Shown here one piece after another: positions 4,843 through 61,465 of a DNA stretch of 64,000 nucleotides; the stretch's first letter is position 1; the number at the start of each line of letters is the position of its first letter. Source of the DNA: Candidatus Rokubacteria bacterium RIFCSPLOWO2_02_FULL_73_56 (GTDB lineage: Bacteria; Methylomirabilota; Methylomirabilia; Rokubacteriales; CSP1-6); assembly GCA_001788495.1 (NCBI GenBank), contig MGCF01000053.1, positions 27,756 to 91,755 of the forward strand. The letters run 5' to 3'. A model generated the notes under the pieces. That model was not told the origin of the DNA and searched no databases. It saw only the letters and a program-made list of their open reading frames with translations. The position numbers were made by a program, and so were the translations under genes.

Positions 4843-4866
4843 CGGCGCTATACTACCGCCACTCCC

Positions 4867-6192
4867 ATGACGCCGCGGCACGACCGGCTCGAGCTGCTGG
4901 ATCGCTACCTGCGCATCCCGACGATCAGCCGGCAGGTGACGCCGGAGACGGTCGAGGCCGTGCGCGCCTTCTGGCGCGACCTGGGCCTGCCGCTCGAGCC
5001 GCTCGCCCCTCCCGGCGGCGCGGGGACGCCGGCGCTCTGGGGCGAGATCCCGGGCCCCGCGGGCGCGCCCACGCTCCTGCTCTACGGCCACTGGGACGTG
5101 CAGCCCACGGGCGACCCGGCGCGCTGGCGCTGGGAGGGCGTCGAGTGCCGGCCGTTCGAGCCGACGTACTTCCTCCGCGGGCGCCGCGTCGAGCCGCGCA
5201 CGGTCCCGGCGGCGGAGCTGGACGACGTGGTCGTGGTCGCGCGCGGGGGCGCCGACAACAAGGGCCAGCACCTGGCCAACGTCCTCGGCGCGCTCGACGC
5301 CGCGCGCGCGGGCACGCTCGCCTGGCGCGTGCGGATCGTCCTCGACGGCGAGGAGGAGCACGGCAGCCCCCACCTCGAGGCGATCGCGCGGGCGCACCGC
5401 GCGCGCCTCGCCGCCGACGTGCTGATCGGCTCGGACGGGCCGAAGCCCGGGGACCAGCCCACGCTCGTGATGGGGGTGCGCGGCCTCCTCATGGTGGACC
5501 TCGTCGCGGACAACGGCCAGCCCGCGTCGCTCCACTCCGGCAACTACGGCAACATCGTGCCGAACCCCGTGCTGCCGCTCGCGCGGCTCATCGAGGACAT
5601 CGAGGCGCGCGTGGCCGCGTACGCCGAGGCGCACGCGGCGTTCCGGCAGGAGGCCGAGGCGGTGTTCGCGAAGTGGCAGGACCGCGCGGTCTGGACGCCG
5701 TACCTGCGGCCCACGGTGAACGTCAACCACCTGATGACCGAGGGCGCCTCGCCCGCGCTCCGGCGCACGATCATCCCGCGCTCGGCCCACGCGCGCCTCG
5801 ACGTCCGCCTGACGCCCGACACGCCGCTCGGCGCGGTGCGCGAGCTGGTCGAGCGCGCGGTCGCCGACCACCAGCGCCGGACGCCGGGCGTCGCGTTCAG
5901 CGTGGCGCTGGAGGGCCAGCCCGCGAGCTACACCTCGCCGGCGCGGCCGGAGTTCGGCTGGCTCCTCCGCCTGCTCGAGGAGCACGCGGACGCCGAGCCC
6001 GTCGCGCTGCCGATCCTGGGCGGCACGCTGCCACTGCACGTCTTCACGGACACGCTCGGGATCCCCGCGCTGTGGCTCCCGGCCGCCAACGCGAACAACC
6101 AGCAGCACGACGTCAACGAGCACTACGTGCTGCGCCACTTCTACGGCCAGACCGCGCTCTTCACCCGGATCGTCTCGTCGCGACCCCACTAG
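4867..6192 (+). CDS. M20 family metallopeptidase (dipeptidase/ArgE/DapE-like)
   Basis: Starts MTPRHDRLELLDRYLRIPTIS. HWDVQP, GGADNKG and DGEEE(H)GS motifs are typical of M20 peptidases. It is the 3' part of ORF 4240..6192. TATACT lies 13 nt upstream of the ATG in a 24-bp divergent gap. Confidence 0.8.
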   Translation: MTPRHDRLELLDRYLRIPTISRQVTPETVEAVRAFWRDLGLPLEPLAPPGGAGTPALWGEIPGPAGAPTLLLYGHWDVQPTGDPARWRWEGVECRPFEPTYFLRGRRVEPRTVPAAELDDVVVVARGGADNKGQHLANVLGALDAARAGTLAWRVRIVLDGEEEHGSPHLEAIARAHRARLAADVLIGSDGPKPGDQPTLVMGVRGLLMVDLVADNGQPASLHSGNYGNIVPNPVLPLARLIEDIEARVAAYAEAHAAFRQEAEAVFAKWQDRAVWTPYLRPTVNVNHLMTEGASPALRRTIIPRSAHARLDVRLTPDTPLGAVRELVERAVADHQRRTPGVAFSVALEGQPASYTSPARPEFGWLLRLLEEHADAEPVALPILGGTLPLHVFTDTLGIPALWLPAANANNQQHDVNEHYVLRHFYGQTALFTRIVSSRPH

Positions 6193-6201
6193 GAGGAGAC
6201 C

Positions 6202-7737
6202 ATGAAGCGGATCGTCACCCTCGCCTCACTGCTGCTGCTCGCGCTCTCGCTCGCCGTGCCCGCGGGGCCCGCCGACGCCGCCCCCCGGGGGCGGGTCACC
6301 GTCGCGCTCGGGTCGGACACGCCGACGCAGGACCCGCACATGCACACGGCGCGGATGGGCATCATCATCAACCAGCACATCTTCGACACCCTGCTCGCGC
6401 GCGACACCACCACCTGGAAGCCGGTGCCGCACCTCGCCGAGTCCGTGAAGAGCGTCAACGCGCTCACCTGGGAGCTCCGGCTGCGGAAGGGCGTCACGTT
6501 CCACAACGGCGAGCCCTTCACCGCCGAGAGCGTGAAGTTCTCCTTCGACCGCGTGCTGAACCCGGAGCAGAAGTCGCCGCTCCGGGGCAACTTCACCTGG
6601 ATCAAGTCGGTGGACGTCGTGGACGAGCACACGGTCCGCATCGTGACCACCAAGCCCTACCCGCTCATCCAGGAGATCCTCACCTTCGGCAACTTCGGCA
6701 TGGTGCCGCCCAGGTACATCAAGGAGAAGGGCGACGCCAACTTCGCCAAGCACCCGGTCGGGACCGGGCCGTTCACGTTCGTCGAGTGGCGCAAGGGCGA
6801 GCGGACCGTGCTGGAGGCGAACGAGCGGTACTGGAAGGGCGCGCCCGCGATCAAGACCCTCGTCTTCCGCGTGATCCCGGAGACCGCGACGCAGATCGCC
6901 GAGCTGCTCTCGGGCGGCGTGGACATCATCCGGGCCGTCCCCCCCGACCAGATCCCGGCGATCGAGCGCTCGGGCACCGCGCGGATCACCGCGACGAAGA
7001 TCCTGCGCGTCGTGTACCTGCAGCTCGACGGCGACGGCCGCGCCGGCAAGACGCCGCTCACCGACGTGCGCGTGCGCCGCGCGATCAACCACGCGGTCAA
7101 CGTGGACGAGATCATGCAGAAGGTGCTCGGCGGCAAGGCCGTGCGCTCGACCACCGGCGACAACCCGATGGTGTTCGGCTACGACCCCGCGGTGAAGCCG
7201 TACGCGTACGACCCGGCGCAGGCCAGGAAGCTCCTCGCCGAGGCGGGCTACCCGAACGGCCTCGAGCTGACGCTCAACACGTACGCGGGCTCGATCGTGA
7301 ACGTCGACCAGGTCGCGCAGGCGATCATGGGCTACCTGAGCCAGGTCGGCGTGCGGGTCAAGCTCCGCCACTTCGCCGACGTCGGGCAGTACCTGGCGAA
7401 CTTCCGCGGCTCGAAGCTCGACGGCATGACGCTCGCGTCCTGGGGTTACAACTCGGTCTTCGACACCGACGCGATCTACTACATCCACTTCCACACGGGC
7501 GAGCCCTACGCGTACAACACGTCCAGGGAGATGGACCAGTGGCTGGAGGCCGGGCGCTCCACGGTGGACCCCAGGCAGCGGCAGGACGTCTACTCGAGGT
7601 TCCAGCGGTTCATCGTGGACCAGGCCTACTGGGTGCCGATGTACGCGCAGTTCACGATCGAGGCGGTCTCGAACAAGCTGAACTACGAGGCCTCGAGCGA
7701 CGAGATCATGCGCGTGCACGCGGCCACGTGGAAGTAG
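6202..7737 (+). CDS. ABC transporter substrate-binding protein, family 5 (peptide/nickel DppA-like)
   Basis: 511 aa with a Sec signal peptide, a GGAGG RBS and SBP_bac_5-like sequence throughout. Confidence 0.85.
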   Translation: MKRIVTLASLLLLALSLAVPAGPADAAPRGRVTVALGSDTPTQDPHMHTARMGIIINQHIFDTLLARDTTTWKPVPHLAESVKSVNALTWELRLRKGVTFHNGEPFTAESVKFSFDRVLNPEQKSPLRGNFTWIKSVDVVDEHTVRIVTTKPYPLIQEILTFGNFGMVPPRYIKEKGDANFAKHPVGTGPFTFVEWRKGERTVLEANERYWKGAPAIKTLVFRVIPETATQIAELLSGGVDIIRAVPPDQIPAIERSGTARITATKILRVVYLQLDGDGRAGKTPLTDVRVRRAINHAVNVDEIMQKVLGGKAVRSTTGDNPMVFGYDPAVKPYAYDPAQARKLLAEAGYPNGLELTLNTYAGSIVNVDQVAQAIMGYLSQVGVRVKLRHFADVGQYLANFRGSKLDGMTLASWGYNSVFDTDAIYYIHFHTGEPYAYNTSREMDQWLEAGRSTVDPRQRQDVYSRFQRFIVDQAYWVPMYAQFTIEAVSNKLNYEASSDEIMRVHAATWK

Positions 7738-7760: not shown

Positions 7761-8690
7761 ATGTGGACGTTCGTCGTGCACCGGCTGGTCCGGGCGGTCT
7801 TCGTCTGCCTGGGCATCTCGCTGATCACGTTCACGCTGCTGCACGTGGTCGGCGACCCGGTGCTGCTGCTCGTGCCCCAGAGCGCGTCGGACGCGGACGT
7901 CCGGCTCCTCAAGGAAAAGCTCGGCCTCGACCGGCCGCTCTGGGCGCAGTACGCCGTGTTCCTGCGCGACGCCGTCCGCGGGGACTTCGGCGAGTCGCTC
8001 TTCACGCAGGAGTCGGCGCTCGTGCTGATCCTCGAGCGGATGCCGGCCACGCTCGAGCTGACGTTCGCCGGCATGGCGGTGGGGCTCCTGATCGCCATCC
8101 CGCTCGGCGTCGTCTCCGCGATCCGCCGCGGCTCGCTGACCGACCGGCTCTGCACGGTCGGGGCCGTCACGGGGCAGGCGATGCCGATCTTCTGGCTCGG
8201 CATCATGCTCATCATCGTCTTCGCCGTGCAGCTCCGGGTCCTGCCCGCGTCCGGCCGCGGCACCCTGGCGCACCTCGTGCTCCCGGCCATCACGCTCGGC
8301 GCGTACCTGGCGCCGCTCACGATGCGGCTCACGCGCTCGGGCATGCTCGACGTGCTCACGCAGGACTACATCCGCACCGCGCGGGCCAAGGGCGTCGGCG
8401 AGCGCGTGCTCCTGTTCAAGCACGCGCTCCGCAACGCGGCGATCCCGATCGTGACGATCCTCGGCGTGCAGTTCGGGCGCCTGCTCGGCGGCGCCGTCGT
8501 CACCGAGACGGTCTTCGCCTGGCCCGGCGTCGCCTCGCTCGCCGTGAAGGCGATCAACACCTACGACTACCCGGTCGTCCAGGGCGCGGTGGTGCTGCTC
8601 GCGTTCCTGATCGTGCTCGCCAACCTCCTGGCCGACATCGCCGTGACCTGGCTCGACCCGCGCGTCCGCCTCGACGAGGACCATGCCTAG
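7761..8690 (+). CDS. ABC transporter permease (DppB/OppB-like)
   Basis: 309 aa, 6 TM, with a conserved EAA-like loop (ARAKGVGE..LLFKHALRNA). Confidence 0.85.
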   Translation: MWTFVVHRLVRAVFVCLGISLITFTLLHVVGDPVLLLVPQSASDADVRLLKEKLGLDRPLWAQYAVFLRDAVRGDFGESLFTQESALVLILERMPATLELTFAGMAVGLLIAIPLGVVSAIRRGSLTDRLCTVGAVTGQAMPIFWLGIMLIIVFAVQLRVLPASGRGTLAHLVLPAITLGAYLAPLTMRLTRSGMLDVLTQDYIRTARAKGVGERVLLFKHALRNAAIPIVTILGVQFGRLLGGAVVTETVFAWPGVASLAVKAINTYDYPVVQGAVVLLAFLIVLANLLADIAVTWLDPRVRLDEDHA

Positions 8691-9543
8691 GCTCCGGCGC
8701 CTCCGCTTCCTGGCCGTCGGCAGCGCGATCGTGGGCGTGGCCGTCCTCTGCGCCCTCGCCGCGCCCCTGCTCGCGCCGGGCGACCCCTATCGCCAGGCCG
8801 TCGGCAACCGCCTGCTGCCGCCGGTCTGGGCCGCGGGCGGGAGCTGGACGCACGCGCTCGGCACCGACCCGCTCGGGCGCGACACCCTTTCGCGCATCAT
8901 CTACGGCGCCCGCGTCTCGATCAGCGCGGGCGCCCTCGCCGTGGCCTTCTCGATGGTCCTCGGCGTGCTCATGGGGCTCCTCGCCGGCTTCTTCCGCGGC
9001 ACGGTGGACGCGGTGGTCTCGAACTTCGTGGACGTGATGCTCGCCTTCCCGTTCCTGCTGCTCGCGCTCGCCGCGGTCGCGGCGCTCGGCCCGGGCTTCG
9101 GCAACATGATCGTGGTGCTCGGGCTCACGGGCTGGCCGATCTACACGCGCGTCGTGCGGGCCGAGACGCTCAAGTTCCGCGAGCGCGAGTTCGTGCTGGC
9201 GGCGCGGGCGCTCGGCCTCGGCAGCGCGCGCATTTTGCGGGCGCACGTGCTGCCGAACCTGGTCAACACGATCATCGTCATGGCGAGCCTCGAGGTCGCG
9301 CGCATGATCATCCTCGAGTCGTTCCTGTCCTTCCTCGGGCTCGGCATCCAGCCGCCGACGCCCTCGTGGGGCGCGATGCTCGGCGAGGGGCGCGTCTACA
9401 TGCTCACCCACTGGTGGCTCGCCGCCTTCCCCGGGGCCGCGATCTTCGTCACCACGCTCGGGATCAACCTGTTCGGCGACGGCCTGCGCGACGTGCTCGA
9501 CCCGCACCGCGTCCTCATGCAGCCCGGCACGCGGGCGGAGTGA
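8683..9543 (+). CDS. ABC transporter permease (DppC/OppC-like)
   Basis: 286 aa. The start overlaps the previous stop by 8 nt. Permease signature AARALGLGSARILRAHVLPN. No ATPase genes follow. Confidence 0.85.
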   Translation: MPRLRRLRFLAVGSAIVGVAVLCALAAPLLAPGDPYRQAVGNRLLPPVWAAGGSWTHALGTDPLGRDTLSRIIYGARVSISAGALAVAFSMVLGVLMGLLAGFFRGTVDAVVSNFVDVMLAFPFLLLALAAVAALGPGFGNMIVVLGLTGWPIYTRVVRAETLKFREREFVLAARALGLGSARILRAHVLPNLVNTIIVMASLEVARMIILESFLSFLGLGIQPPTPSWGAMLGEGRVYMLTHWWLAAFPGAAIFVTTLGINLFGDGLRDVLDPHRVLMQPGTRAE

Positions 9544-9586
9544 CGCGCGCGCCGAGCTTCAGGACGTCGCGTCTCGAGATCTTCAT
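9515..9586 (-). other. 23-aa mini-ORF with twin-arginine (Tat) signal-like sequence; probable remnant of a truncated exported-protein gene
   Basis: MKISRRDVLKLGARVTPPACRAA. Its ATG overlaps the AtuA stop (ATGA), with GGAGAGGA 6 nt upstream. The ORF ends inside the 3' end of the convergent permease gene. Confidence 0.3.
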
Positions 9587-11355
9587 GGTGTCCTCTCCGA
9601 ACATGGTTGGGAGAGCAGGGCCTGCGGGAGCTCGGCCCGGCGCGCGCGGAAGTACTCGCCGAGCGACTTCGCCTGCGGGTCGCTCCGCGTCGAGGAGGAC
9701 ACGCCCTCCCCGAGCAGCCCCTTGAGCACGAAGTTCACGGCCAGCAGGTTCGGTAGCAGGTGGCGCTCGACGGCGAGGCCGCGGCACTCGGGCAGGAGCT
9801 GCCGGAGCCGGTCGGGTGTGACGCTCGCCGCGAGCCACGCGTAGGCCTGGGGGCTCCGCGCCCAGACGCCGAGGTTCGCGTTGCCGCCCTTGTCGCCCGA
9901 GCGCGCGCCGAAGAGCCGCCCAAGCGGCGCGCGCACGGTCGGCCCGGACGGCACGGGCGGGAGCGGGACGACGGGGACGGCCACGCCGGGGAACGCGGCC
10001 GGCGGCGCGCTCGGCGCGACGCGGATCGCCTCGCCCTCGAGGTGCACCACCTGCTCGATCAGCCCGGCCGGGACGAGCGCCGGCCAGTAGACCGCGTACG
10101 GCGACTCCTCCTGGGGCGGCGCCGTCGTGTGGAAGCCCGGGTAGTGGGCGAGCGCCAGCTCGATCGCCTTGTTGCTGAAGGCGCGCCCGACCTTCTTCGG
10201 GTCCGGATCCTTCACGGTGATCTTCAGGTGGGCGAACGCCGCCTCGTTCGTCGCGGGGTCCTCGCGGTCCGAGCGCACGAGGCTCACGGCGGTCTCGGCG
10301 AAGCTCTCGCGCCCGCCCACGAGCGGCCAGAACGTGTCCTCGATCAGCTTGGCCTTCTCGACGACGTCGAGCCCGGCCAGCACGAAGCTCACGCCGTTCC
10401 GGTAGCCGCCCAGGTAGTTGAGGCAGAGCTTGGCCGTGGCCGGCGGCGGCTCGCCGCGCACGCCCGAGACGCGCACGCGGTCGGGGCCGGTCGCCTCGAG
10501 GCGGATCGTGTCGAAGCGCGCGGTCGCGTCGGGATTGAGGTAGCGGGGCGCGTCGATCTCGTAGAGGAGCTGGGCGGTGAGCGTGCCGACCGAGACGAGG
10601 CCGCCCGTGCCCGGGTGCTTGGTCACGACGAAGGTGCCGTCCTCCTCGACCTCGGCGAGCGGGAAGCCGATCTTCGTGTAGGTCGGCACCTCCTGGAAGA
10701 AGGCGTAGTTGCCGCCCGTGCACTGGGCGCCGCACTCGAGGATGTGTCCCGCGACGACCGCGGAGGCCAGCCGGTCCCAGTCCTCGCGCGCCCAGCCGAA
10801 GCGCCACGCCGCGGGGCCGACGACGAGCGAGGCGTCGGTGACGCGGCCGGTGATCACGACGTCGGCGCCGCGCCCGAGGGCCTCGGCGATCCCCCAGCCC
10901 CCGAGGTAGGCGTTCGCCGTGAGGACCGGCGCCCGGAGCTGGGCGAGCGGGAGCCCCCGGTCGAGGTGCGCGAGGGCGTGCCCCTGCGCCTGCCAGGCCT
11001 CCAGGCGGTCGAGCACGTCGTCGCCGGTCACGTACGCAATGCGCGGCGCGAGCCCGAGCGTCCGCGCGACGGCGGCGAGCGCCTCGGCGCAGCCCCGGGG
11101 GTTGAGCCCGCCGGCGTTCACGACGACGCGGATCCCCCGCTCCAGGCAGCGGCCGAGGACCTGCTCCATCTGGGTGACGAACGTCGTCGCGTACCCGGCC
11201 TCCGGCCGCTTCTGGCGCGTGCGCCAGAGGATCGCCATGGTGAGCTCGGCGAGGTAGTCGCCGGTCAGGACGTCGATCGGCCCGCCCTCCACCATCTCGC
11301 GCGCGGCGGCGAGGCGGTCGCCGTAGAAGCCGGAGCAGTTGGCGATGCGGAGCAC
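9583..11355 (-). CDS. AtuA-family (DUF1446) protein
   Basis: Conserved core starts VLRIANCSGFYGDRLAAAREMVEGGPIDVLTGDYLAELTMAIL. I chose the GTG start at 11355. The track ORF 9583..11661 adds a low-complexity N-extension that I consider non-coding. Confidence 0.7.
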   Translation of the reverse strand: MLRIANCSGFYGDRLAAAREMVEGGPIDVLTGDYLAELTMAILWRTRQKRPEAGYATTFVTQMEQVLGRCLERGIRVVVNAGGLNPRGCAEALAAVARTLGLAPRIAYVTGDDVLDRLEAWQAQGHALAHLDRGLPLAQLRAPVLTANAYLGGWGIAEALGRGADVVITGRVTDASLVVGPAAWRFGWAREDWDRLASAVVAGHILECGAQCTGGNYAFFQEVPTYTKIGFPLAEVEEDGTFVVTKHPGTGGLVSVGTLTAQLLYEIDAPRYLNPDATARFDTIRLEATGPDRVRVSGVRGEPPPATAKLCLNYLGGYRNGVSFVLAGLDVVEKAKLIEDTFWPLVGGRESFAETAVSLVRSDREDPATNEAAFAHLKITVKDPDPKKVGRAFSNKAIELALAHYPGFHTTAPPQEESPYAVYWPALVPAGLIEQVVHLEGEAIRVAPSAPPAAFPGVAVPVVPLPPVPSGPTVRAPLGRLFGARSGDKGGNANLGVWARSPQAYAWLAASVTPDRLRQLLPECRGLAVERHLLPNLLAVNFVLKGLLGEGVSSSTRSDPQAKSLGEYFRARRAELPQALLSQPCSERTP

Positions 11356-48848: not shown

Positions 48849-49229
48849 ATGGTGTTGTCCGGTCGCTTTGCGGCTCTCCGAGACAAGGCAAGACGCGGCT
48901 TCCGCGGATACCCGCTCGCTACGGTCGCCTATTACGGGCCGGACGCCAGCAGGGCTACAAAGGTCGCAGTGGGCGTCATCCTGAAAGAGGGAGACGAGCC
49001 CGACGCGCTCGAGCGCTGGCACTCCTCCGAGTCCGATGTCCGGTTCGACCAAGAGATCTGCGGGGCCGCCCTTGAGTTCATGGCGGCCCATCAGGTAAAG
49101 ACCATTGTTCTCAGTGCCGGGATCATCGGCTGCCCCCACGAGGAAGGCGTCGACTATCCGGAGGGGCAGAAGTGCGGGGCGTGCCCATATTGGGCGGATC
49201 GCGATCGATGGACCGGAAAGGCCAAGTGA
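48849..49229 (+). CDS. hypothetical protein (126 aa) with C-terminal Cys motifs
   Basis: ...IIGCPHEEGVDYPEGQKCGACPYWADRDRW. I recognise no family. GC is lower than in the surroundings. Confidence 0.4.
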   Translation: MVLSGRFAALRDKARRGFRGYPLATVAYYGPDASRATKVAVGVILKEGDEPDALERWHSSESDVRFDQEICGAALEFMAAHQVKTIVLSAGIIGCPHEEGVDYPEGQKCGACPYWADRDRWTGKAK

Positions 49230-53154: not shown

Positions 53155-53721
53155 TCAGACGAGCCAGCGGGCGAGGCGCGCCAGGCGGCTGCCACGGGCG
53201 GCCGCGCGCTCGAGCGGGCCCGCGAGGAAGGCGTCCACGCCGAAGCTGCGGCCGGCGTCCGTGAGCAGGAACAGGGCCGGGAGCGTGAGCAGCATCACGT
53301 AGGTCCAGCCCCACTCGTGCGGCACGCCCAGGATGCCGACCGTGATGTTCGCGGCCATGCCGAGGGCGACGAGCGCGCCGAGCCGCGTGCCGAGCCCGAG
53401 CATCAGCGTGACGCCGATGAAGGTTTCGGTGAGCAGGGTCATCCAGCCGAAGAACGTCCAGTGCGGGATCATCACGGTGACCAGGAAGTCCCGGTACGCG
53501 CCCACCGTCGGGTGCTGGATCTCCTGCTGGACCCAGTACCACAGGCCGCCGCCCGACGTCCGGCCGAAGTCGTCCGACGGGACCTTCCAGGCCGACTGCT
53601 GCCACCAGAGGTACCCGTAGAGGATCCGCGCCAGGCCGAGCGGCCAGAGCGGGGCGGTCGCGCGCAGCCACCCCGCGAGCGCCCCCGGCCGGGCCTCCGT
53701 CGTCGTCCGGCTCATCGTCAT
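53155..53721 (-). CDS. DoxX-like membrane protein
   Basis: 188 aa from MTMSRTTT, with 4 TM. It is the 3' part of track ORF 53155..54072. Confidence 0.45.
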   Translation of the reverse strand: MTMSRTTTEARPGALAGWLRATAPLWPLGLARILYGYLWWQQSAWKVPSDDFGRTSGGGLWYWVQQEIQHPTVGAYRDFLVTVMIPHWTFFGWMTLLTETFIGVTLMLGLGTRLGALVALGMAANITVGILGVPHEWGWTYVMLLTLPALFLLTDAGRSFGVDAFLAGPLERAAARGSRLARLARWLV

Positions 53722-53947
53722 CCCCCCGTCCAGCGTGACCGCCTCGTCCCCTTGTACCCGCAGGCGCACCCTCCTGTCACCTGGGACACCCCGCCCGCCC
53801 GGCCGGGTGCGGCGAACCCGCCGGGCCGCGCGGCGTGTCTCAGCCGTGGGCGCGTGTGCCCGCGGCCGTTGTTTGCACGGTTGTGACAATCGCCGATCAC
53901 GGCCGGGGCACCATCCACGGACCGGCAGCCGGGGGCGACGGGCGACG

Positions 53948-54628
53948 ATGCGAGTCACGGTGATCATTCCTGCGCTGAACGAGGAGGCGGCGATCGCCGG
54001 CGTCGTGCGCGAGGTTCCTCGCGAGCTCGTGGGCGAGGTCATCGTCGTGGACAACGGCAGCACCGACCGCACCGCCGAGCGCGCGCGCGCCGCCGGGGCG
54101 CGGGTCGTCCGGGAGCCCGAGCGCGGCTACGGCGCGGCGTGCATGGCGGGGGTGCGCGCGGCCGGTGACGCCGACGTGCTCGTCTTCCTCGACGGCGACC
54201 GGAACGAGGACCCCGCGGAGCTGGCCCGGGTCCTCGGCCCCGTCCTGGCGGGCCGCGCCGACCTCGTCATCGGCTCGCGCGTGCGCGGCCCGCGCGGTGC
54301 CCGGGCGCTCCCGCCGCAGCAGCGCGCGGGCAACCGCGTGGTCGCCCTGCTCCTCCGGCGCCTCTACGGCCTGGCCCTCACGGACGTCGGGCCGTTCCGC
54401 GCCGTGCCCGCGCGCGTGCTCCACGACCTCGGCCTGGAGCACCGCACGTACGGCTGGCCGGTCGAGATGCTCGTCAAGGCGGCGCGCCGCGGCTACCGCA
54501 TCGTCGAGGTGCCCGTGAGCTGCCGGCCGCGCATCGGCCGCTCCAAGGTGGGCGGCACGCTCCGGGGCAGCGTGCTCGCGGGCTACCACATGCTCCGCAC
54601 CACGCTCACGTACGCCTGGAGGCGCTGA
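53948..54628 (+). CDS. family 2 glycosyltransferase (DPM1/GtrB-like)
   Basis: 226 aa from MRVTVIIPALNEE, with a DxD-type motif (FLDGDR). It is the 3' part of ORF 53735..54628. Confidence 0.8.
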   Translation: MRVTVIIPALNEEAAIAGVVREVPRELVGEVIVVDNGSTDRTAERARAAGARVVREPERGYGAACMAGVRAAGDADVLVFLDGDRNEDPAELARVLGPVLAGRADLVIGSRVRGPRGARALPPQQRAGNRVVALLLRRLYGLALTDVGPFRAVPARVLHDLGLEHRTYGWPVEMLVKAARRGYRIVEVPVSCRPRIGRSKVGGTLRGSVLAGYHMLRTTLTYAWRR

Positions 54629-54631
54629 CGG

Positions 54632-55624
54632 ATGGCCTTCTCGGTCGGGATCGGGCTCACGAACGAGTGCAATCTCCGCTGTCCGCACTGCTACCGACCG
54701 GACCGCGCGGTCGCGCGCCTGACCCTCGCGGACGTCCGCCGCGTGTGCGAGGCGCTCCCGGTGCGCTCGATGAACCTGGGCGTGGGCGAGAACGGCCTGC
54801 ACCCCGAGTACGGCGCGATCCTCGACTACCTGTGGCGGCGCGGCGTGCGCACGAGCATCACCTCGAACGGCCTGAGCCTCGAGGCGCTGCCCGACGACGC
54901 GCTCAAGCGCTTCCACAGCGTCGAGTGCTCGCTCGACTTCCCCACCGAGCCCGCGCACGACGCCTTCCGCGGGCGCGGCAACTGGCGCGCGGTGGCGGGC
55001 GCGCTCGAGCGGTGCGGCGTCCTCGGGGTGCCGGTGACGGTCACGGCCGTCATGATGAGCGTCAACCACGACCGGCTCGACGCGCTGGCACGCGTGGCGG
55101 CGGGCTTCGGCTGCGACCTCCGCGTGAACGTCTACCAGCCCTCCCGCACGGACCGGTTCACGCTCTCGTACGCGCAGTTCTGGGAGGGCTTCCGGCGCCT
55201 CCTCGGCGGCGCGCGCCTCGTGGCCACGACCGAGCCCGTGCTCGCGGGCGTGCTCGGGATCGCCGGCTTCCAGGGGCCCGCGTGCGGCCGCTCCACGGTC
55301 CGCGTGGCGCCGGACGGGCGGGTCCTGCCCTGCACCTACTGGCCCGAGAGCGCGCTCACGCTGGCCGACCTCGCCGCGCGCGGCGCCGGCATCGTGGAGG
55401 CGCCCGAGTTCGCGCAGGCCCGTGGCGTGTCGGCCGCGTGCGCCGGCTGCCCCTGCCGCGGCGGCTGCGCCGGCCGCCGCGCCCTGGCGGGCGGCCTCGA
55501 CGCCCCGGATCCGTACTGTCCGTTCGCGCGCGGCGAGCGGGTCGCCCTCGACTGGGAGGCGGCGCCGGGCGAGGACATGCCGAAGATGGGCAGCGCGTGC
55601 ACGACGCTCGTGTCGGCGCGCTGA
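54632..55624 (+). CDS. radical SAM protein with C-terminal SPASM/Cys-rich domain
   Basis: CNLRCPHC (CxxxCxxC) at the N-terminus. C-terminal cysteines lie in CTYWPE...CAGCPCRGGCAGRR...CPF. Confidence 0.8.
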   Translation: MAFSVGIGLTNECNLRCPHCYRPDRAVARLTLADVRRVCEALPVRSMNLGVGENGLHPEYGAILDYLWRRGVRTSITSNGLSLEALPDDALKRFHSVECSLDFPTEPAHDAFRGRGNWRAVAGALERCGVLGVPVTVTAVMMSVNHDRLDALARVAAGFGCDLRVNVYQPSRTDRFTLSYAQFWEGFRRLLGGARLVATTEPVLAGVLGIAGFQGPACGRSTVRVAPDGRVLPCTYWPESALTLADLAARGAGIVEAPEFAQARGVSAACAGCPCRGGCAGRRALAGGLDAPDPYCPFARGERVALDWEAAPGEDMPKMGSACTTLVSAR

Positions 55625-55635
55625 GGGCGCCGCGC

Positions 55636-56643
55636 GTGGACACCTCGCCGCGCCCGGCGGTCGTCCCCACCCTGCCGCGCTCGCTCTACCTCGAGGTCAC
55701 CAACCGCTGCGACTCCGCCTGCCAGACGTGCCTCCGCACGTTCCGCACGCTCGAGCCGCCCGCGGACCTGGACCTCGGGCGCGTGCGGGCGCTCGTCGCG
55801 GGGCTTCCCGCGCTCGACCGCGTGGTGCTCCACGGGATCGGCGAGCCGCTGCTCAATCGCCACCTCTTCGACATCGTCGCCTTCCTCAAGGCGCGCGGCG
55901 CGCGCGTGCTCTTCAACTCCGACGCGATCGGCCTGACCGAGCCCCGCGCGGTCCGGCTGATCGAGAGCGGGCTCGACGAGCTCCGCGTCTCCATGGACGC
56001 GGCGACGCGCGCGACGTACCGCCGCGTGCGCGGCGTGGACCGCCTCGACCGCGTCGTGGCCAACGTGGGCCGCCTCGTCGCGCTCGAGCGCGCCCGCGGC
56101 GGCGCGCCGCCGCGCGTCTCGCTCTGGTTCACGGCCTCGCGGGCGAACCTCGAGGAGCTGCCCGACTTCGTCGGGCTGGCCGCGCGCGTGGGCGCGCCGG
56201 AGGTGCACGTGCAGCGGCTCGTGTGGAACGGCCTCGGCCTCGCGACGCGCGCGAACTCGCTCCACCGCGCCCTGGTCGAGCGCGAGCGCGGCCTCCTCGC
56301 CGAGGCCGAGGCGCGCGCGCGCGCGGCGGGGATCGCGCTCTCCGCCTCGGGCCTCAGCACGCCGCTCGCGAGCCTCGCGGACGGGCCGAGCGGCGCGCGG
56401 CCCTGGGCGGGCTGCCAGCGGCCGTGGACCCTCGCCTACGTGACGGCGAACGGCAACGTGCTCCCGTGCTGCATCTCGCCGTGGGTCGCGCGCGACTACG
56501 CGGGGCTCGTCCTCGGCAACGCGTTCGCCGAGCCGCTCGAGGTGATCTGGAACGGCGAGCGCTACCGGCGCTTCCGGGCGCGCTTCGAGAGCGACGTGGC
56601 CCCGGACCCCTGCCGCGGCTGCGGGCGACTCTGGAGCCTCTGA
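55636..56643 (+). CDS. radical SAM protein with C-terminal SPASM/Cys-rich domain (second copy)
   Basis: GTG start. CDSACQTC is the radical-SAM motif. C-terminal cysteines lie in CQRPW...CCISPW...CRGCG. It is the 3' part of ORF 54667..56643. Confidence 0.75.
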   Translation: MDTSPRPAVVPTLPRSLYLEVTNRCDSACQTCLRTFRTLEPPADLDLGRVRALVAGLPALDRVVLHGIGEPLLNRHLFDIVAFLKARGARVLFNSDAIGLTEPRAVRLIESGLDELRVSMDAATRATYRRVRGVDRLDRVVANVGRLVALERARGGAPPRVSLWFTASRANLEELPDFVGLAARVGAPEVHVQRLVWNGLGLATRANSLHRALVERERGLLAEAEARARAAGIALSASGLSTPLASLADGPSGARPWAGCQRPWTLAYVTANGNVLPCCISPWVARDYAGLVLGNAFAEPLEVIWNGERYRRFRARFESDVAPDPCRGCGRLWSL

Positions 56644-58667
56644 TGCGCCGCCGCACGCTCGTGCGCGCCGGCGTCACCGCGGCGGGGCTCGGGAGCCTGC
56701 CGCTCTACGGGCTCGACCTCCACGCGCGCGTCGGCGCGGACCTCGGCGTCCTCGCCGTGTACGTGGCGCTCTTCGCGGGCCTCTTCGGGCTCTACCTGCT
56801 GACCGCGTGGGCCGTCCTCGCGCGGCCCGCCCGCGATCCGCTGGTGCTCGCGCTCGTGCTCGGCTTCGGGCTCGCGTTCCGCGTCGCGGTCCTGCCGACG
56901 CCCGTCGTGCTCTCGTCCGACGTCTACCGCTACCTCTGGGACGGCCGCGTGCAGCGCGCGGGCATCAACCCGTACCGCCACCCGCCCGCGGCGCCCGAGC
57001 TCCGGCCCCTGCGCGACGCGCGCATCCACGCGGCCATCAACCGGCCCGCGGCGCCCACCATCTACCCGCCGGGCGCCCAGGCGGCCTTCCTCGCGGTCAC
57101 CTGGCTCGCGCCCGACAGCCTGCTCGCCTGGCGGGGGTTCCTGCTCCTGTGCGAGCTCGCCACCGGCGTGCTGCTCCTGCGGCTCCTGGACCGGCTGGCC
57201 GTGCCGCGCGAGGCCATCATCCTCTACGCGTGGGCGCCGCTCGCGGTCTTCGAGGGCGTGCAGGCGGGGCACCTCGAGGTCGCCGTCCTGCCCGCGCTCC
57301 TGCTGGCGCTCCTCTGGCGCCAGGACGGGCGGATGCTGCGCGCGGGCGCGGCCCTCGGCGTCGCGGTCCTCGTCAAGCTCTACCCGGCGGTGCTGCTGCT
57401 CGCCTGGTGGCGCCGGGGCGATCGCCGCCTGCCCGCGGCGTGCGCGGTCGTCGTCGCCGCCGGCTACCTGCCGTACCTCGCCGGCGCGGGCGCCGGGGTC
57501 GTGGGCTTCCTGCCCGCGTACTTCACGCGCGCCGAGGACTTCAACGTGGGCCTGCGCCACTTCCTGACCGCGGCGGTCGGGCTCGGCGGCGAGGGCCCGC
57601 GCGCCGTCGCGATGCTCGGTCTCCTCGCCCTCCTGCTCGGCGTGCTCCTCCGGATCCGGCGCGAGGCGACGGACGACGCGGCCGGCGTCTTCCGGGCGGG
57701 CATGGCCGCCGCCTCGGCCTACCTCGTCCTCGTGCCCACCTCGATGCACCCGTGGTACGCGGTCTTCATCCTGCCCTTCGTCGCGGTGAGCCCGTCGCCC
57801 GCCTGGGTCTGGTTCACCGGTGCCGTGAGCCTCTCCTACCTCGCCTACGCCTGGCTGCCCGCGCCGTTCCCGCTCTGGCTCCGCGCCGTCGAGTGGGCAC
57901 CGCTCTGGGCGCTGCTGCTGGTGGACCTCCGCGCGTGGCCGCGCGCCTTCCTGCCGCGCCGTGCGAGAGTGGAAGGCGTGGCGGCCGAGCCCGAGGTCGC
58001 GGTCGCGATCATGGCCAAGGCGCCCGTGGCGGGCGCCGTGAAGACGCGCCTCTGCCCGCCGCTCGCGCCCGGGCAGGCGGCGGCGCTCGCCCGCTGCTTC
58101 CTCCTCGACAAGCTCGGCCAGCTCCGGACGCTGCGCGGGGCCCGGCCGGTCGTCGCGTTCAGCCCGGCCGACGCCGCCGACCTCTTCCGCGCGCTCGCGC
58201 CCGGGGTCGACCTGCTGGCCCAGCGCGGCCCCGACCTCGGCGCGCGCCTGGCCGCGGTGCTCGGCGACCTCCTGGCCCGGGGCGCCCCGGCCGCCATCGC
58301 CGTGGACAGCGACACGCCGAGCCTCCCGGCGGCCTTCGTGCAGATGGCGGTGGACCGCCTGGCCGATCCCGCGGTGGACCTCGTGCTCGGCCCGAGCGAG
58401 GACGGCGGCTATTACCTGATCGGCATGCCGCGCGTCCACGGCGCGCTCTTCGCGGCGATGCCCTGGAGCACGCCCGACGTGCTGGCCGAGACCGAGCGGC
58501 GCGCACGGGCCGCGGGGCTCCGCGTCGTCCGGCTGCCGGTCTGGTTCGACGTGGACACCGCCGCGGACCTCGAGCGGCTGCGCGCCGCGCTCGCCCGGGG
58601 CGAGGGCGCCCCGGCGCCGGCGACCCGCGCGCTCCTTGCGGCGTGGCGCGCGACGGCGCCGGCCTGA
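56643..58667 (+). CDS. fusion protein with an N-terminal polytopic GT-C-like (DUF2029-like) membrane glycosyltransferase domain and a C-terminal DUF2064 nucleotide-diphospho-sugar-transferase-like domain
   Basis: 674 aa. The ATG overlaps the upstream stop (TGATG). The first ~440 aa are multi-TM. The C-terminal ~200 aa (VAVAIMAKAPVAGAVKTRLCPPL...AIAVDSDTP...GPSEDGGYYLIGM) matches DUF2064. Confidence 0.6.
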   Translation: MRRRTLVRAGVTAAGLGSLPLYGLDLHARVGADLGVLAVYVALFAGLFGLYLLTAWAVLARPARDPLVLALVLGFGLAFRVAVLPTPVVLSSDVYRYLWDGRVQRAGINPYRHPPAAPELRPLRDARIHAAINRPAAPTIYPPGAQAAFLAVTWLAPDSLLAWRGFLLLCELATGVLLLRLLDRLAVPREAIILYAWAPLAVFEGVQAGHLEVAVLPALLLALLWRQDGRMLRAGAALGVAVLVKLYPAVLLLAWWRRGDRRLPAACAVVVAAGYLPYLAGAGAGVVGFLPAYFTRAEDFNVGLRHFLTAAVGLGGEGPRAVAMLGLLALLLGVLLRIRREATDDAAGVFRAGMAAASAYLVLVPTSMHPWYAVFILPFVAVSPSPAWVWFTGAVSLSYLAYAWLPAPFPLWLRAVEWAPLWALLLVDLRAWPRAFLPRRARVEGVAAEPEVAVAIMAKAPVAGAVKTRLCPPLAPGQAAALARCFLLDKLGQLRTLRGARPVVAFSPADAADLFRALAPGVDLLAQRGPDLGARLAAVLGDLLARGAPAAIAVDSDTPSLPAAFVQMAVDRLADPAVDLVLGPSEDGGYYLIGMPRVHGALFAAMPWSTPDVLAETERRARAAGLRVVRLPVWFDVDTAADLERLRAALARGEGAPAPATRALLAAWRATAPA

Positions 58668-58822: not shown

Positions 58823-59539
58823 TCAGAACAGGTCCCACCACTCGCCGCGCGCGGCCATCGCCGCACCGCTCTCCTCCAGGATCACGCGCCCGGTGCGCAT
58901 GACGTAGACGCGGGCCGCGATGGCGAGCGCGTGGCGGATGTTCTGCTCGACCAGGAGCACGGTCAGGCGCTCGCGGCGCACGATGTCCTGGATCGTCTCC
59001 ATGATGCGCTCGACGAGGAGCGGCGCGAGCCCGAGCGAGGGCTCGTCGAGGAGGAGCAGCCGCGGCCGCATCATCAGGGCCATGCCGAGGCTCAGCATGC
59101 GCTGCTCGCCGCCGGAGAGCGTGCCGGCGAGCTGCCGGCGGCGCTCCGCGAGCACGGGCAGGAGCGTCAGGACGGCCTCGTGCCGCCCGGCCGCGAGCCG
59201 CCGGTCCGCCACGGAGAAGGCGCCGAGCTCGAGGTTCTCGGCGACGCTGAGGTCGGCGAAGACGAAGTGCTCCTGCGGCACGAAGGCGAGGCCGCGGCGC
59301 ACGCGCGCCGCGCTCGAGGCCCGCTCGACCGGCGCGCCGTCGAAGACCACCCGGCCCTGCCAGGCCGGCAGGAGCCCGGCGAGGGCCTTGAGCGTCGTGG
59401 TCTTGCCCGCGCCGTTGTGGCCGATGAGCGCGACGACCTCGCCCGCGCGCACGGCCAGCGAGGCGCCGAAGACCACCTGCTTGCGCCCGTAGCCGGTCGT
59501 GAGGCCCTCCACGGCGAGGAGCGCGTCCACGGCGCTCAC
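58823..59539 (-). CDS. livF: branched-chain amino acid ABC transporter ATP-binding protein
   Basis: 238 aa. The GTG start overlaps the upstream stop (GTGA). GHNGAGKTT and LLLLDEPSLGLAP are present. Confidence 0.85.
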   Translation of the reverse strand: MSAVDALLAVEGLTTGYGRKQVVFGASLAVRAGEVVALIGHNGAGKTTTLKALAGLLPAWQGRVVFDGAPVERASSAARVRRGLAFVPQEHFVFADLSVAENLELGAFSVADRRLAAGRHEAVLTLLPVLAERRRQLAGTLSGGEQRMLSLGMALMMRPRLLLLDEPSLGLAPLLVERIMETIQDIVRRERLTVLLVEQNIRHALAIAARVYVMRTGRVILEESGAAMAARGEWWDLF

Positions 59540-61236
59540 CGCCGGCCCTTGCCGAAGTAGATCTCGCCGAGCCGCGGGTCGGCCATCAGCTCCTCCGGCC
59601 GCCCCTCGGCGATGATGCGTCCGGCCTCCATGAAGTACGCGCGGTCGGCGATGGCCGTGACGACCTCGAGGTTGTGCTCGACGATGCAGACGGTCTTGCC
59701 GGCGGCCGCGACCTGGCGGATCAGCTCGAGGATCCGGCCGACCCAGTGCACGTCGACCCCCGACGCCGGCTCGTCGAGGAGCAGCACGTCGGCCTCGGTC
59801 GCGATGAGCCGCGCGAGCGCGACGAGCTTCTGCTCGCCGAAGGCGAGCGAGGCGGCGACCTCGCCGGCGCGGTCGGCGAGGCCCACGAAGGCCAGGTAGC
59901 CGAGCGCCTTCGCGCGGTTCGCCCGCTCGGCGGCGGCGGCGCGCCAGGGGGCCAGGAACAGCGGCCCCAGGCGCTCGCCGGGCTGGCCGGGGATCGCCGC
60001 GACGACGTTGTCGAGGACGGTCATGCGCTCGAAGAGGCGCACGTCCTGGAACGTCCGCGCCAGGCCGTAGCCCACGGTCCGCCACGGCGCGAGCCCGGTC
60101 ACGTCGCGACCCCGGAGCACGACGCGGCCGGCGTCGGGCGCGAGGAACCCGGTGAGGAGGTTGAAGACCGTCGTCTTGCCGGCGCCGTTGGGCCCCACGA
60201 GCGCCGTCACCTTGCCGCCGGGCAGCGCGAGGCTCAGCCCGTCGGCGGCGCGGATGCCGCCGAAGTGCTTGGCGAGGCCCTCGGCCACGAGCACCGGCCG
60301 CCCGTCGGCGGCGCGCGCGGCGGCCGCCGGCAGCGCCGGCGCGACGTCGGCGCCGGCCGGGGCCCGGCCGACGCCCGCGCGCTCGGGCACGAGGCCCTGC
60401 GGCCGGAAGCGCATGAACGCCACGAGCACGGCGCCGAACACGAAGTCGCGGATCGCGTCCACGATCTCGGCGCGGGCCTCGAGGAAGCGGAGGACCTCGG
60501 GCAGCCCGACGAAGAGCACGGCGCCGACGATCGTCCCGACCAGGTTCGCGGTGCCGCCGAGCACCACGAGCGCGACCAGGAAGATCGAGCGGTCGAGCGT
60601 GAAGCTGAACGGGTTGACGAACGCCTGGTAGTGCGCGAACAGCGCGGCCGCCACCGCCGCCAGCGCCCCGCTGAGCGAGAAGACCAGCACCTTGTAGCGG
60701 AGGACGCTCTTGCCGATCGCGAGCGTCGCGCGCTCGTCGTCGCGCATCGCCTTCAGCACGCGGCCGAGCGGCGACTCGCCGAGCCGGTAGCCGATCGCGA
60801 AGACGAGGGCGGCGCACCCGGCAATGAGCGGGAGGAACTGCGCGGGCGTGACGAGCGTCCGGCCGAACAGCGTCGGCCGGGGGATCGCGGAGACCCCCGT
60901 CCGCCCCTCGGTGAGGTCCACCCAGGAGAGCATCAGCTCGTAGAGCACCATCTGGAGCGCGAGCGTCAGGAGGATCAGGTACTCGCCGCGGACGCGGAGC
61001 GCCGGGAACGTCACGCCGCCGGCCAGGAGCGTCGTCACGGCCACGGCCGCCAGCAGCGTGAGCGGGAACGGCCAGCCGAGGTGGCGCGCGGTCAGCGCCG
61101 CGGCGTAGGCGCCGACGCCGAAGAAGGCGCCGTGCGACATCGAGACGAGCCCGCTGTAGCCGAGCAGCAGGTTGAGCGAGACGCCGAGGATGGCGAAGAG
61201 CAGGATCATGTTCACGACGTGGAGCCAGAAGTCCAC
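59536..61236 (-). CDS. fused branched-chain amino acid ABC transporter permease (LivM-like) and ATP-binding (LivG-like) protein
   Basis: About 566 aa from GTG 61236 (CAGGAG RBS). The N-terminal ~310 aa form a LivM-type permease (VDFWLHVVNMILLFAILGVSLNLLLGYSG). A Pro/Ala linker follows, then the LivG ATPase (GPNGAGKTTVFNLLTGF, LLLDEPASG) in one continuous frame. Confidence 0.8.
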   Translation of the reverse strand: MDFWLHVVNMILLFAILGVSLNLLLGYSGLVSMSHGAFFGVGAYAAALTARHLGWPFPLTLLAAVAVTTLLAGGVTFPALRVRGEYLILLTLALQMVLYELMLSWVDLTEGRTGVSAIPRPTLFGRTLVTPAQFLPLIAGCAALVFAIGYRLGESPLGRVLKAMRDDERATLAIGKSVLRYKVLVFSLSGALAAVAAALFAHYQAFVNPFSFTLDRSIFLVALVVLGGTANLVGTIVGAVLFVGLPEVLRFLEARAEIVDAIRDFVFGAVLVAFMRFRPQGLVPERAGVGRAPAGADVAPALPAAAARAADGRPVLVAEGLAKHFGGIRAADGLSLALPGGKVTALVGPNGAGKTTVFNLLTGFLAPDAGRVVLRGRDVTGLAPWRTVGYGLARTFQDVRLFERMTVLDNVVAAIPGQPGERLGPLFLAPWRAAAAERANRAKALGYLAFVGLADRAGEVAASLAFGEQKLVALARLIATEADVLLLDEPASGVDVHWVGRILELIRQVAAAGKTVCIVEHNLEVVTAIADRAYFMEAGRIIAEGRPEELMADPRLGEIYFGKGRR

Positions 61237-61465
61237 TAGGAACTCCTGGCGAGCGCGGGCCGGCGCCGGGCCGCCGGGCGTGTGCGGGAGGGGTCGGCGA
61301 CGACCACGCGGCACGCGTCCGCCTGCCCCGTCGCGGCCGGGCTCCATCCGGACGCGTGCGGCCCGCTCCCTCCATGGCGGGAACGGGTCTCCGTCGCCCC
61401 CTCCCGCGCACGCCCGGCGGCCCGACCCCACTCGCCGCGCTCGACACGACGTCGGGGGCGGCGCA

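Follow-up and report, generated by a model that had tools for sequence, protein, structure and literature searches.

We analysed a stretch of 64,000 nucleotides from contig MGCF01000053.1 of Candidatus Rokubacteria bacterium RIFCSPLOWO2_02_FULL_73_56 (hereafter the window), in which a compact cassette encodes a family 2 glycosyltransferase (GT2), two radical S-adenosylmethionine (SAM) enzymes (rSAM1 and rSAM2) and a GT87-type membrane glycosyltransferase fused to a DUF2064 domain. Homology and gene context suggest that the cassette is a lipid-carrier-dependent envelope glycosylation system which builds an unusual sugar tailored by the radical-SAM enzymes, and we assign this explanation as a whole a probability of about 0.5. 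The part which states that a nucleotide-activated, radical-SAM-modified sugar is placed on the envelope through a lipid carrier appears slightly better than even, and the identification of that sugar as a 5-deoxy-5-X-pentofuranose of the methylthioxylose (MTX) or arsenosugar type is tentative. By sequence comparison, the cassette is conserved phylum-wide in Methylomirabilota and is present in three other phyla. The observation of this gene set in the original prediction, which had been made from the letters alone, is confirmed, and its interpretation is partly supported.

The plot of third-position GC content shows values of 0.95-1.00 over 53948-58667, where they trace four genes of the plus strand that occupy three frames in succession; the whole window has a GC content of 70-77%. 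The four closely spaced genes proposed for this interval are therefore borne out, as are an 11-nt gap and a 1-nt overlap at the second and third junctions; the first gap, however, is 3 nt and not 4. All four domain assignments were recovered with Pfam (Glycos_transf_2, Radical_SAM twice, GT87 and DUF2064). A second possible start of rSAM2 is a GTG at 55597, which would give a protein of 348 aa, but 55636 is favoured because most homologues are 335 aa long and only a few are 348 aa.

The DUF2064 domain scores 98 bits in Pfam (residues 493-610 of the fusion) and 165.9 bits against a cut-off of 134 with TIGR04282 ('arsenosugar biosynthesis glycosyltransferase'; model positions 1-189 of 189, fusion residues 454-643), so that its assignment is upheld by hidden Markov model (HMM). 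It also matches the NCBIfam CofC model (32.8 bits) and PDB entry 3cgx (1e-22), and its orthologues match Pfam CofC and NTP_transf_3; a CofC/MobA-type nucleotidyltransferase fold is thus predicted. The N-terminal domain matches PF09594 with 50 bits against a gathering threshold of 25 (residues 140-354 of the fusion), and its homologues, which are about 450 aa long when they stand alone, carry the precomputed annotation PF26314 MptA_B_family. It has about ten hydrophobic segments and an invariant loop motif, SSDxYRYLWDG (SSDVYRYLWDG in the window), and the loop residue D93 was found to be invariant in 14 homologues including those of Methylobacterium and Chloroflexia. A score above the gathering threshold, a polytopic topology and a conserved acidic residue in the predicted first periplasmic loop together place this domain in the GT87 family. 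The fusion protein of the window is 100% identical to a protein of Candidatus Rokubacteria bacterium RIFCSPLOWO2_02_FULL_73. The fusion is in frame in the window and at loci L003, L005 and L057, and among the 120 top homologues seven, of a Rokubacteria subclade, have it, whereas DUF2064 is a standalone gene in most relatives. It is therefore as unusual as had been supposed, and joining DUF2064 to the C-terminus of GT87 would do no more than tether a cytoplasmic activating enzyme to the membrane.

The GT2 protein matches Pfam Glycos_transf_2 with 79 bits. Its best NCBIfam matches are AglJ (126 bits), Dol-P-hexose transferase (95) and PpgS (85), all of them under the cut-offs, and its matches among PDB sequences are GpgS, Pyrococcus DPMS (5mlz) and ArnC. 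From these likenesses the protein appears to be of the small, soluble polyprenyl-phosphate sugar synthase type (Dpm1/AglJ/PpgS-like) and is a candidate for the enzyme that makes the lipid-linked donor. It is 43-49% identical to the GT2 proteins encoded next to DUF2064 in Streptomyces (44%), Methylobacterium (43-45%) and Miltoncostaea. With TIGR04283 it scores 50.3 bits against a cut-off of 182 and aligns only over model positions 2-85, and the TIGR04283-type GT2 of Thiodictyon, used as a query, gave no match to it at E<=1e-4. Two GT2 lineages were observed to accompany TIGR04282, namely TIGR04283, which occurs with ArsS or the methylthioadenosine (MTA) phosphorylase MtnP and without a GT-C enzyme, and a Dpm1-like lineage, which is paired with a GT-C enzyme and to which the window protein belongs. 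At the Methylomirabilota loci L012 (1-426) and L031 (15577-16170), a second GT2 akin to the Thiodictyon gene occurs besides the Dpm1-like one.

The two radical-SAM enzymes are, by sequence comparison, two distinct families. They share 32% identity across 85 N-terminal residues and no further similarity; a recent duplication was therefore rejected, and the earlier description of them as paralogues did not hold. Both proteins do show the CxxxCxxC motif and the Cys-rich C-terminus that had been noted, which place them in the SPASM/Twitch subfamily with predicted auxiliary clusters. In rSAM1 (Pfam Radical_SAM 58 bits, no match to Pfam SPASM), the motif is C13/C17/C20 and is followed by seven invariant SPASM-like cysteines (C218-x15-C234, C270xxC273xC275xxxC279 and C296) and by an invariant C-terminal tail, PKxGSACTTVVSAR, whose cysteine (C323) is also conserved. 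In rSAM2 (Pfam SPASM 59 bits, Radical_SAM 40 bits), the motif is C25/C29/C32 and the C-terminal cysteines are C260-x17-C278/C279 and C326xxC329. We take this spacing to be that of the single auxiliary cluster in the Twitch domain of BtrN, in which case rSAM2 would hold one auxiliary cluster.

Neither enzyme reaches the cut-off of any curated NCBIfam family. The best match of rSAM1 is the mycofactocin maturase MftC (79 bits against 265), and rSAM2 matches a tungsten-enzyme maturase (116 against 380) and PqqE (73 against 381). Among PDB sequences rSAM1 matches PqqE marginally, while rSAM2 matches BtrN (9e-12) and PqqE. AlphaFold predicted both structures with moderate confidence only (pLDDT 74 and pTM 0.72 for rSAM1, 73.6 and 0.76 for rSAM2); searched against the PDB with Foldseek, the models matched BlsE, viperin, SkfB, anSME, SuiB, PqqE and DesII for rSAM1, and DesII, SkfB, SuiB, BlsE, MoaA, viperin and BtrN for rSAM2. 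Enzymes acting on sugars or nucleotides top both lists and peptide maturases score alike, so these predicted folds are compatible with a sugar substrate but not decisive.

The homologues of rSAM1 are 70-88% identical and nearly all exactly 330 aa long. The family is small, with 168 proteins at E<=1e-30 when its profile was searched against 1.84 billion representative proteins, and ten of its clusters that were looked up for cultured carriers gave only names of metagenome-assembled genomes (MAGs), from Methylomirabilota and Myxococcales. In contrast, rSAM2 is the radical enzyme that is shared widely, across four phyla, with orthologues of 50% identity in the Methylobacterium cassette and 47% in that of Miltoncostaea, and rSAM1 is an extra component that was seen in uncultured lineages alone. 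A selenocysteine at one of the cysteine positions had been raised as something to check. No in-frame TGA was aligned with any residue of rSAM1, rSAM2 or GT2 in about 60 orthologous loci, and the only two in-frame stops, one each in the GT87 and DUF2064 alignments, lie at alignment ends in L045 and L070.

No sign of a peptide substrate was found in the genes around these enzymes. There is no conserved small open reading frame (ORF) upstream, the junctions between the genes leave no space for a precursor, no gene for a RiPP recognition element (RRE) or PqqD-like protein is present in about 60 syntenic loci (RiPP, ribosomally synthesized and post-translationally modified peptide), and neither enzyme has an N-terminal RRE or other peptide-recognition domain because both start directly with the cluster motif. 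With the MftC and PqqE models under their cut-offs as well, neither enzyme has the marks of a maturase of RiPPs or peptide cofactors. The absence of a precursor and of an RRE makes a glycan or glycolipid target likelier than a RiPP, in agreement with the original prediction.

We collected loci by means of rSAM1, keeping one genome per species, and obtained 61, nearly all from Methylomirabilota (Rokubacteria and NC10/Methylomirabilis) together with a Chloroflexia MAG clade at 47% identity. Synteny was read from a tblastn map of all loci and from the called genes of L001-L003, and the cassette was found to be a trimmed form of a larger cross-phylum cluster which had been missed before. Its recurrent core, in about 60 species-level loci of Methylomirabilota, consists of GT2, rSAM1, rSAM2, a DoxD/DoxX protein, GT87, DUF2064 and a NudE-like NUDIX hydrolase; L022, L031, L034, L052 and L055 keep this set in a shuffled order. 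A processive CelA/PgaC-like GT2, a SoxA/TsdA-like cytochrome c and a CarboxypepD_reg protein are optional members, an NDH-2-like flavoprotein (a weak TIGR03169 match) and a HAMP/HD-GYP protein are frequent neighbours, and a thioester-reductase-like short-chain dehydrogenase/reductase (SDR) lies upstream in only a few loci. The window lacks both the NUDIX hydrolase and the processive GT2 across its 64 kb. Among the Chloroflexia, L056 (GC 54-58%) encodes a GT-C-like protein, rSAM1, a DoxX-like protein, an O-methyltransferase, rSAM2, NUDIX, DUF2064 and GT2 in this order, and L053 and L059 show the compact order rSAM1, GT2, DUF2064. At L059 a unit of rSAM1-like, GT2, DUF2064 and DoxD-like genes occurs twice in tandem (4318-7638 and 8257-11121). 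DoxX/DoxD proteins are encoded in or near the cassette in most Methylomirabilota loci, at L054 and L056 of Chloroflexia, at L065 of Miltoncostaea and in the vicinity of a Burkholderia glumae module.

Versions with rSAM2 and without rSAM1 were found in cultured bacteria. In Methylobacterium aquaticum and M. radiotolerans, an operon encodes a hypothetical protein, DUF2064, GT87, an rSAM2 orthologue, GT2 and a pyridoxal-phosphate-dependent aminotransferase, and in Miltoncostaea oceani (Thermoleophilia) the cluster comprises DoxX, CMD, an Rv1681-like radical-SAM protein, GT87::GT2, DUF2064::NUDIX and an rSAM2 orthologue. On the Miltoncostaea plasmid, the latter cluster is directly preceded by selB, selA and selD (L065, 1-3087). 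That GT87, the small GT2, DUF2064 and NUDIX are joined in three independent fusions argues strongly that they serve one shared pathway.

Plasmids were searched by tblastn with the DUF2064 domain as query. A module on plasmid p49s2p of B. glumae (L067, 5306-8748) consists of an MTA phosphorylase, a GT2-like gene which is unlisted, TIGR04282 and a flavoprotein that matches TIGR03169 ('Nterm_to_SelD') in full, with 347 bits against 310. It occurs on about 49 plasmids of B. glumae and B. thailandensis, with DoxX nearby and without ArsS or a GT-C enzyme. Thiodictyon shows the canonical order GT2, ArsS, TIGR04282, and in Streptomyces (L068) a GalE-like epimerase, the GT2 related to that of the window and DUF2064 are encoded together. 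The DUF2064/GT2 module is directly adjoined by a cytochrome b and an MsrP-like molybdoenzyme in Methylobacterium (L066, 6020-7440) and by a membrane-anchored molybdoenzyme in Streptomyces (L068, 9759-11078), the latter recognised just by its Oxidored_molyb domain match. Molybdoenzymes beside the module in two unrelated phyla hint at sulfoxide reduction of a thioether sugar, and one may speculate that the DoxX, flavoprotein, cytochrome c and molybdoenzyme neighbours point to a redox-active sugar of the thioether type. Methyltransferases also recur, as a SAM-methyltransferase replaces DUF2064 as the C-terminal fusion partner of GT87 in the context of P0037 (JGI 3300043331) and a small-molecule O-methyltransferase lies inside the Chloroflexia operon (L056, 12044-13087), which suggests that some lineages also methylate the sugar or the acceptor.

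The closest precedent for such a pathway is mycobacterial. In M. tuberculosis, MtxS (Rv0539, GT2) makes the decaprenyl-phosphate-linked 5-methylthio-D-xylofuranose donor and MtxT (Rv0541c, GT-C) transfers methylthioxylose to the lipoglycan lipoarabinomannan (LAM). The cluster reportedly also holds an MTA phosphorylase (Rv0535), a GalE-type epimerase (Rv0536) and Rv0540, and MTA is said to be converted to methylthioribose-1-phosphate, then to nucleoside diphosphate (NDP)-methylthioribose and, after C3 epimerisation, to decaprenyl-phosphate-MTX for transfer to LAM. Drawing each step from homology and gene context, we infer that the cassette could start from a sugar-1-phosphate, most likely a 5-deoxy-5-substituted ribose-1-phosphate, which would be set free from a 5'-substituted 5'-deoxyadenosine (for example methylthioadenosine, 5'-deoxyadenosine or an adduct made by a radical-SAM enzyme). 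The cytoplasmic DUF2064/TIGR04282 domain would convert it to an NDP-sugar, and rSAM2 (Twitch, BtrN/DesII-like) and rSAM1 (SPASM-like) might abstract a hydrogen from a sugar C-H and so epimerise, oxidise or dehydrate it. The small Dpm1-like GT2 would then transfer the sugar to polyprenyl phosphate, and after flipping, the GT87 domain with its invariant loop D93 would pass it to a periplasmic acceptor, which may be a glycan, a lipoglycan or a protein. In relatives a NUDIX hydrolase, possibly for control of the NDP-sugar, and the DoxX/DoxD membrane protein would act in the same unit.

The precursor proposed here draws on the neighbours of TIGR04282, which adjoins the MTA phosphorylase on B. glumae plasmids and ArsS in Thiodictyon and thus recurs where a 5'-substituted adenosine becomes a 5-substituted pentose. 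Furthermore, rSAM2 may stand in for the SDR C3-epimerase of mycobacterial MTX synthesis. In Streptomyces the module includes a GalE-like epimerase but lacks a radical-SAM enzyme, whereas in Methylobacterium rSAM2 is present and an epimerase is absent; these are two loci and not a statistic, but a radical replacement of the epimerase fits with them. We regard it as quite unlikely that the two radical-SAM families make a new sugar, for example a radical-epimerised or 5'-adenosine-derived thio- or seleno-pentofuranose, that is displayed on the envelope as a redox scavenger. If this were so, the sugar would be a redox-recyclable, methionine-like scavenger displayed through polyprenyl phosphate and a GT-C enzyme in Methylomirabilota, Chloroflexia and some Proteobacteria and Actinobacteria, its oxidised form would be reduced again by the DoxX/DoxD, TIGR03169-like flavoprotein, cytochrome c or MsrP-like neighbours, and rSAM2, in place of the SDR epimerase of MTX synthesis, would be the first enzyme of the radical-SAM type to epimerise a pentose linked to NDP or to a lipid.

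Several points weigh against envelope glycosylation with a radical-SAM-tailored sugar. DUF2064 could be a true glycosyltransferase and not a nucleotidyltransferase, and the peptide maturases SkfB, SuiB, anSME and PqqE match the folds of the radical-SAM enzymes at E-values similar to those of the sugar enzymes. The cassette is likened to Rv0539, Rv0540 and Rv0541c by role and gene context and not by sequence. Rv0540, which lies between MtxS and MtxT, is only presumed by us to be a DUF2064 protein, and neither Rv0540 nor DUF2064 is mentioned in the papers that were searched. With the B. glumae MtnP as query, no MTA phosphorylase was found in the window or in the Methylomirabilota loci. The polytopic protein adjacent to the Streptomyces module was rejected as a GT87 relative (hhalign probability 0.2); because this candidate GT-C is unrelated to GT87, the GT-C step is analogous to that of MTX and not demonstrably orthologous. 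Finally, the sugar could be an ordinary hexose, since hexose-type synthases (AglJ, DPM and PpgS) are the named families that the GT2 matches best.

The last point leads to a rather unlikely alternative in which the cassette is an ordinary polyprenyl-phosphate-hexose system, using mannose or glucose for an S-layer protein, a lipoglycan or another acceptor, and the radical-SAM enzymes and DUF2064 serve a linked task such as modification of the acceptor. Besides the GT2 matches, the annotation of GT87/MptA_B members as polyprenol-phosphate-mannose-dependent mannosyltransferases, the processive CelA/PgaC-like GT2 of many loci, which suggests a polysaccharide acceptor, and the anSME-like fold matches of both radical-SAM enzymes are consistent with it. 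However, every named GT2 match is far under its cut-off, and housekeeping GDP-mannose or UDP-glucose hardly explains why, in four phyla, GT2 and GT87 are constantly accompanied by DUF2064 and NUDIX or are fused to them. In addition, the minimal versions of the window and Methylobacterium have no processive GT2 and yet retain rSAM2, DUF2064, GT2 and GT87. Maturation of a peptide made by the ribosome, or of a redox cofactor derived from a peptide as mycofactocin and PQQ are, with an MftF-like GT2 and a CofC-like enzyme, could likewise account for the best-matching NCBIfam models of the two enzymes (mycofactocin maturase; PqqE and tungsten-enzyme maturase), for the fold matches to SkfB, SuiB and PqqE and for the redox partners often encoded nearby (DoxX, the NDH-2-like flavoprotein and cytochrome c). 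We hold it to be highly improbable, as the scores of 79 against 265 and 116 against 380 bits are far under the cut-offs, neither a conserved small ORF, nor space at the junctions, nor an RRE on the enzymes or in the about 60 loci was found, and a polytopic GT-C enzyme is ill-suited to a cytoplasmic cofactor route.

The name of TIGR04282 in NCBIfam implies a third possibility, the synthesis of an arsenosugar or arsenolipid or of a selenium analogue. The original prediction had likewise related the cassette to the families catalogued as radical-SAM/selenodomain-associated, and of these DUF2064 does belong to TIGR04282, whereas GT2 is not a member of TIGR04283 and the radical-SAM enzymes are not TIGR04167 proteins. 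The canonical Thiodictyon order and neighbours of the selenium or sulfur type (selA, selB and selD in Miltoncostaea, the TIGR03169 flavoprotein of B. glumae and its weak Methylomirabilota relative, and the SoxA/TsdA-like cytochrome c) are in line with such chemistry. However, TIGR04167 was absent among the best 25 of 30 NCBIfam matches of either radical-SAM enzyme, all of which were far under their cut-offs, and no ArsS homologue was found in the window or the 61 loci beyond generic similarity of the radical-SAM core. As an example, hhalign of the rSAM1 profile with Thiodictyon ArsS aligned only 142 columns of this generic core, and rSAM1 was rejected as an ArsS. With a GT2 outside TIGR04283, of a lineage different from that of Thiodictyon, and no TIGR04167-type enzyme, the cassette is not the catalogued triad. 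The known arsenosugar route offers no place for a GT-C enzyme whose active site is periplasmic. No selenocysteine codon was seen in about 60 orthologous loci, and we consider this possibility improbable.

Table 1. Coordinates of the cassette genes, their domains and upstream features in the window.
Feature	Coordinates	Strand	Length	Remarks
GT2 gene	53948-54628	+	226 aa	followed by a 3-nt gap
rSAM1 gene	54632-55624	+	330 aa	followed by an 11-nt gap
rSAM2 gene	55636-56643	+	335 aa	followed by a 1-nt overlap
GT87::DUF2064 fusion gene	56643-58667	+	674 aa	last gene of the cassette
GT87/MptA_B-type GT-C membrane domain	56643-57977	+	about 445 aa	N-terminal part of the fusion
DUF2064/TIGR04282 domain	57978-58667	+	about 229 aa	C-terminal part of the fusion; CofC/MobA-like fold (predicted)
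DoxX/DoxD-family small membrane protein	53155-53722	-		Pfam DoxD 40 bits, DoxX 25.5 bits
Intergenic motif TTTGCACGGTTGTGACAAT	53872-53890	+	19 nt	between the divergent DoxX gene and GT2; kept in L004 and L005

The DoxX/DoxD gene is transcribed divergently from the cassette on its upstream side and an operon for a Liv-type ABC transporter converges on it downstream (Table 1), which leaves the cassette, in this genome, as a separate unit with four genes (five if DoxX is counted). In the intergenic region, TTTGCACGGTTGTGACAAT is kept with few substitutions in the window and its two closest relatives, L004 and L005, while the flanks show a 65-nt indel. This motif may be a promoter or operator, although no match to the sigma-70 consensus was found at it; a search of the whole window with Rfam for a riboswitch or other RNA element, including TTTGCACGGTTGTGACAAT, gave no matches at the gathering threshold. 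A terminator-like hairpin at 53843-53866 is not conserved, as it lies inside the 65-nt stretch that is absent from L004. When the 225-nt upstream intergenic region was compared with that of a close relative, no small ORF at 53700-53950 was conserved because the relative shows the 65-nt indel there. No GalE-type epimerase is encoded in the window cassette.

In the downstream transporter operon, a LivM-like permease and a LivG-like ATPase appear to be fused (59536-61431, minus strand, 631 aa, 667 codons from stop to stop). Elsewhere in the window, 48849-49229 encodes a small protein (126 aa) that is rich in Cys and carries the motif CPHEEG...CGACPYW in its C-terminal part; it is flanked by type II dehydroquinase-like and aldo/keto reductase-like genes, both assigned by eye from their translations.

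Members of Methylomirabilota (Rokubacteria and NC10) occur widely in soils and in groundwater, and hardly any have been cultured; about 60 species-level genomes of the phylum contain the cassette. The high identity and fixed length of rSAM1 imply a core function in the envelope. The cassette links DUF2064/TIGR04282, two uncurated radical-SAM families and DoxX to the chemistries of methylthioxylose and arsenosugars, which suggests a wider class of envelope decorations built from sugars that derive from 5'-substituted adenosines. In a study of soil metagenomes worldwide, the abundance of TIGR04282 was interpreted as tolerance of arsenic stress. Many TIGR04282 members of soil phyla, however, sit in cassettes without a nearby ArsS, and this reading of metagenomic TIGR04282 is therefore unsafe. 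Because the cultured Methylobacterium aquaticum, M. radiotolerans and Miltoncostaea oceani carry the rSAM2 version, the question is directly testable.

The cassette resembles the arsenosugar cassette in combining TIGR04282/DUF2064 with a GT2 and a radical-SAM enzyme, and the order at the Chloroflexia loci L053 and L059 mirrors that of ArsS, GT2 and TIGR04282. The precursor logic would also be alike, since ArsS adenosylates dimethylarsenite to 5'-deoxy-5'-dimethylarsinoyl-adenosine and both routes would thus pass through a 5'-substituted 5'-deoxyadenosine. However, the SPASM/Twitch enzymes are related to ArsS in the core only, the GT2 is of another lineage, and the window cassette has a GT-C enzyme and a predicted lipid-carrier step, with no arsenic genes seen. 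Among the radical-SAM enzymes BtrN, DesII, BlsE, viperin and MoaA, rSAM2 matches BtrN in sequence, the predicted models have DesII (rSAM2) and BlsE (rSAM1) as their top fold matches, and neither enzyme has a peptide-recognition domain. The identity is just 15-20%, no curated cut-off is reached, and rSAM1 differs from the sugar enzymes in its seven-Cys SPASM-like domain and its unique invariant C-terminal Cys tail.

The MTX system shares with the cassette, by analogy, a small Dpm1-like GT2 and a GT-C membrane enzyme that would bring an unusual polyprenyl-phosphate-linked sugar to the envelope. In contrast to the mycobacterial cluster, the window cassette has two radical-SAM enzymes and neither an SDR epimerase nor an MTA phosphorylase, its GT-C enzyme is a GT87 protein fused to DUF2064, and its relatives add NUDIX and DoxX. 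The acceptor also cannot be LAM in the non-actinobacterial phyla that carry the cassette. The known logic seems to be of the MTX type, in which a nucleotide-activated unusual sugar passes over a lipid carrier to a GT-C enzyme, and what is new would be the addition of two uncharacterised radical-SAM families to it.

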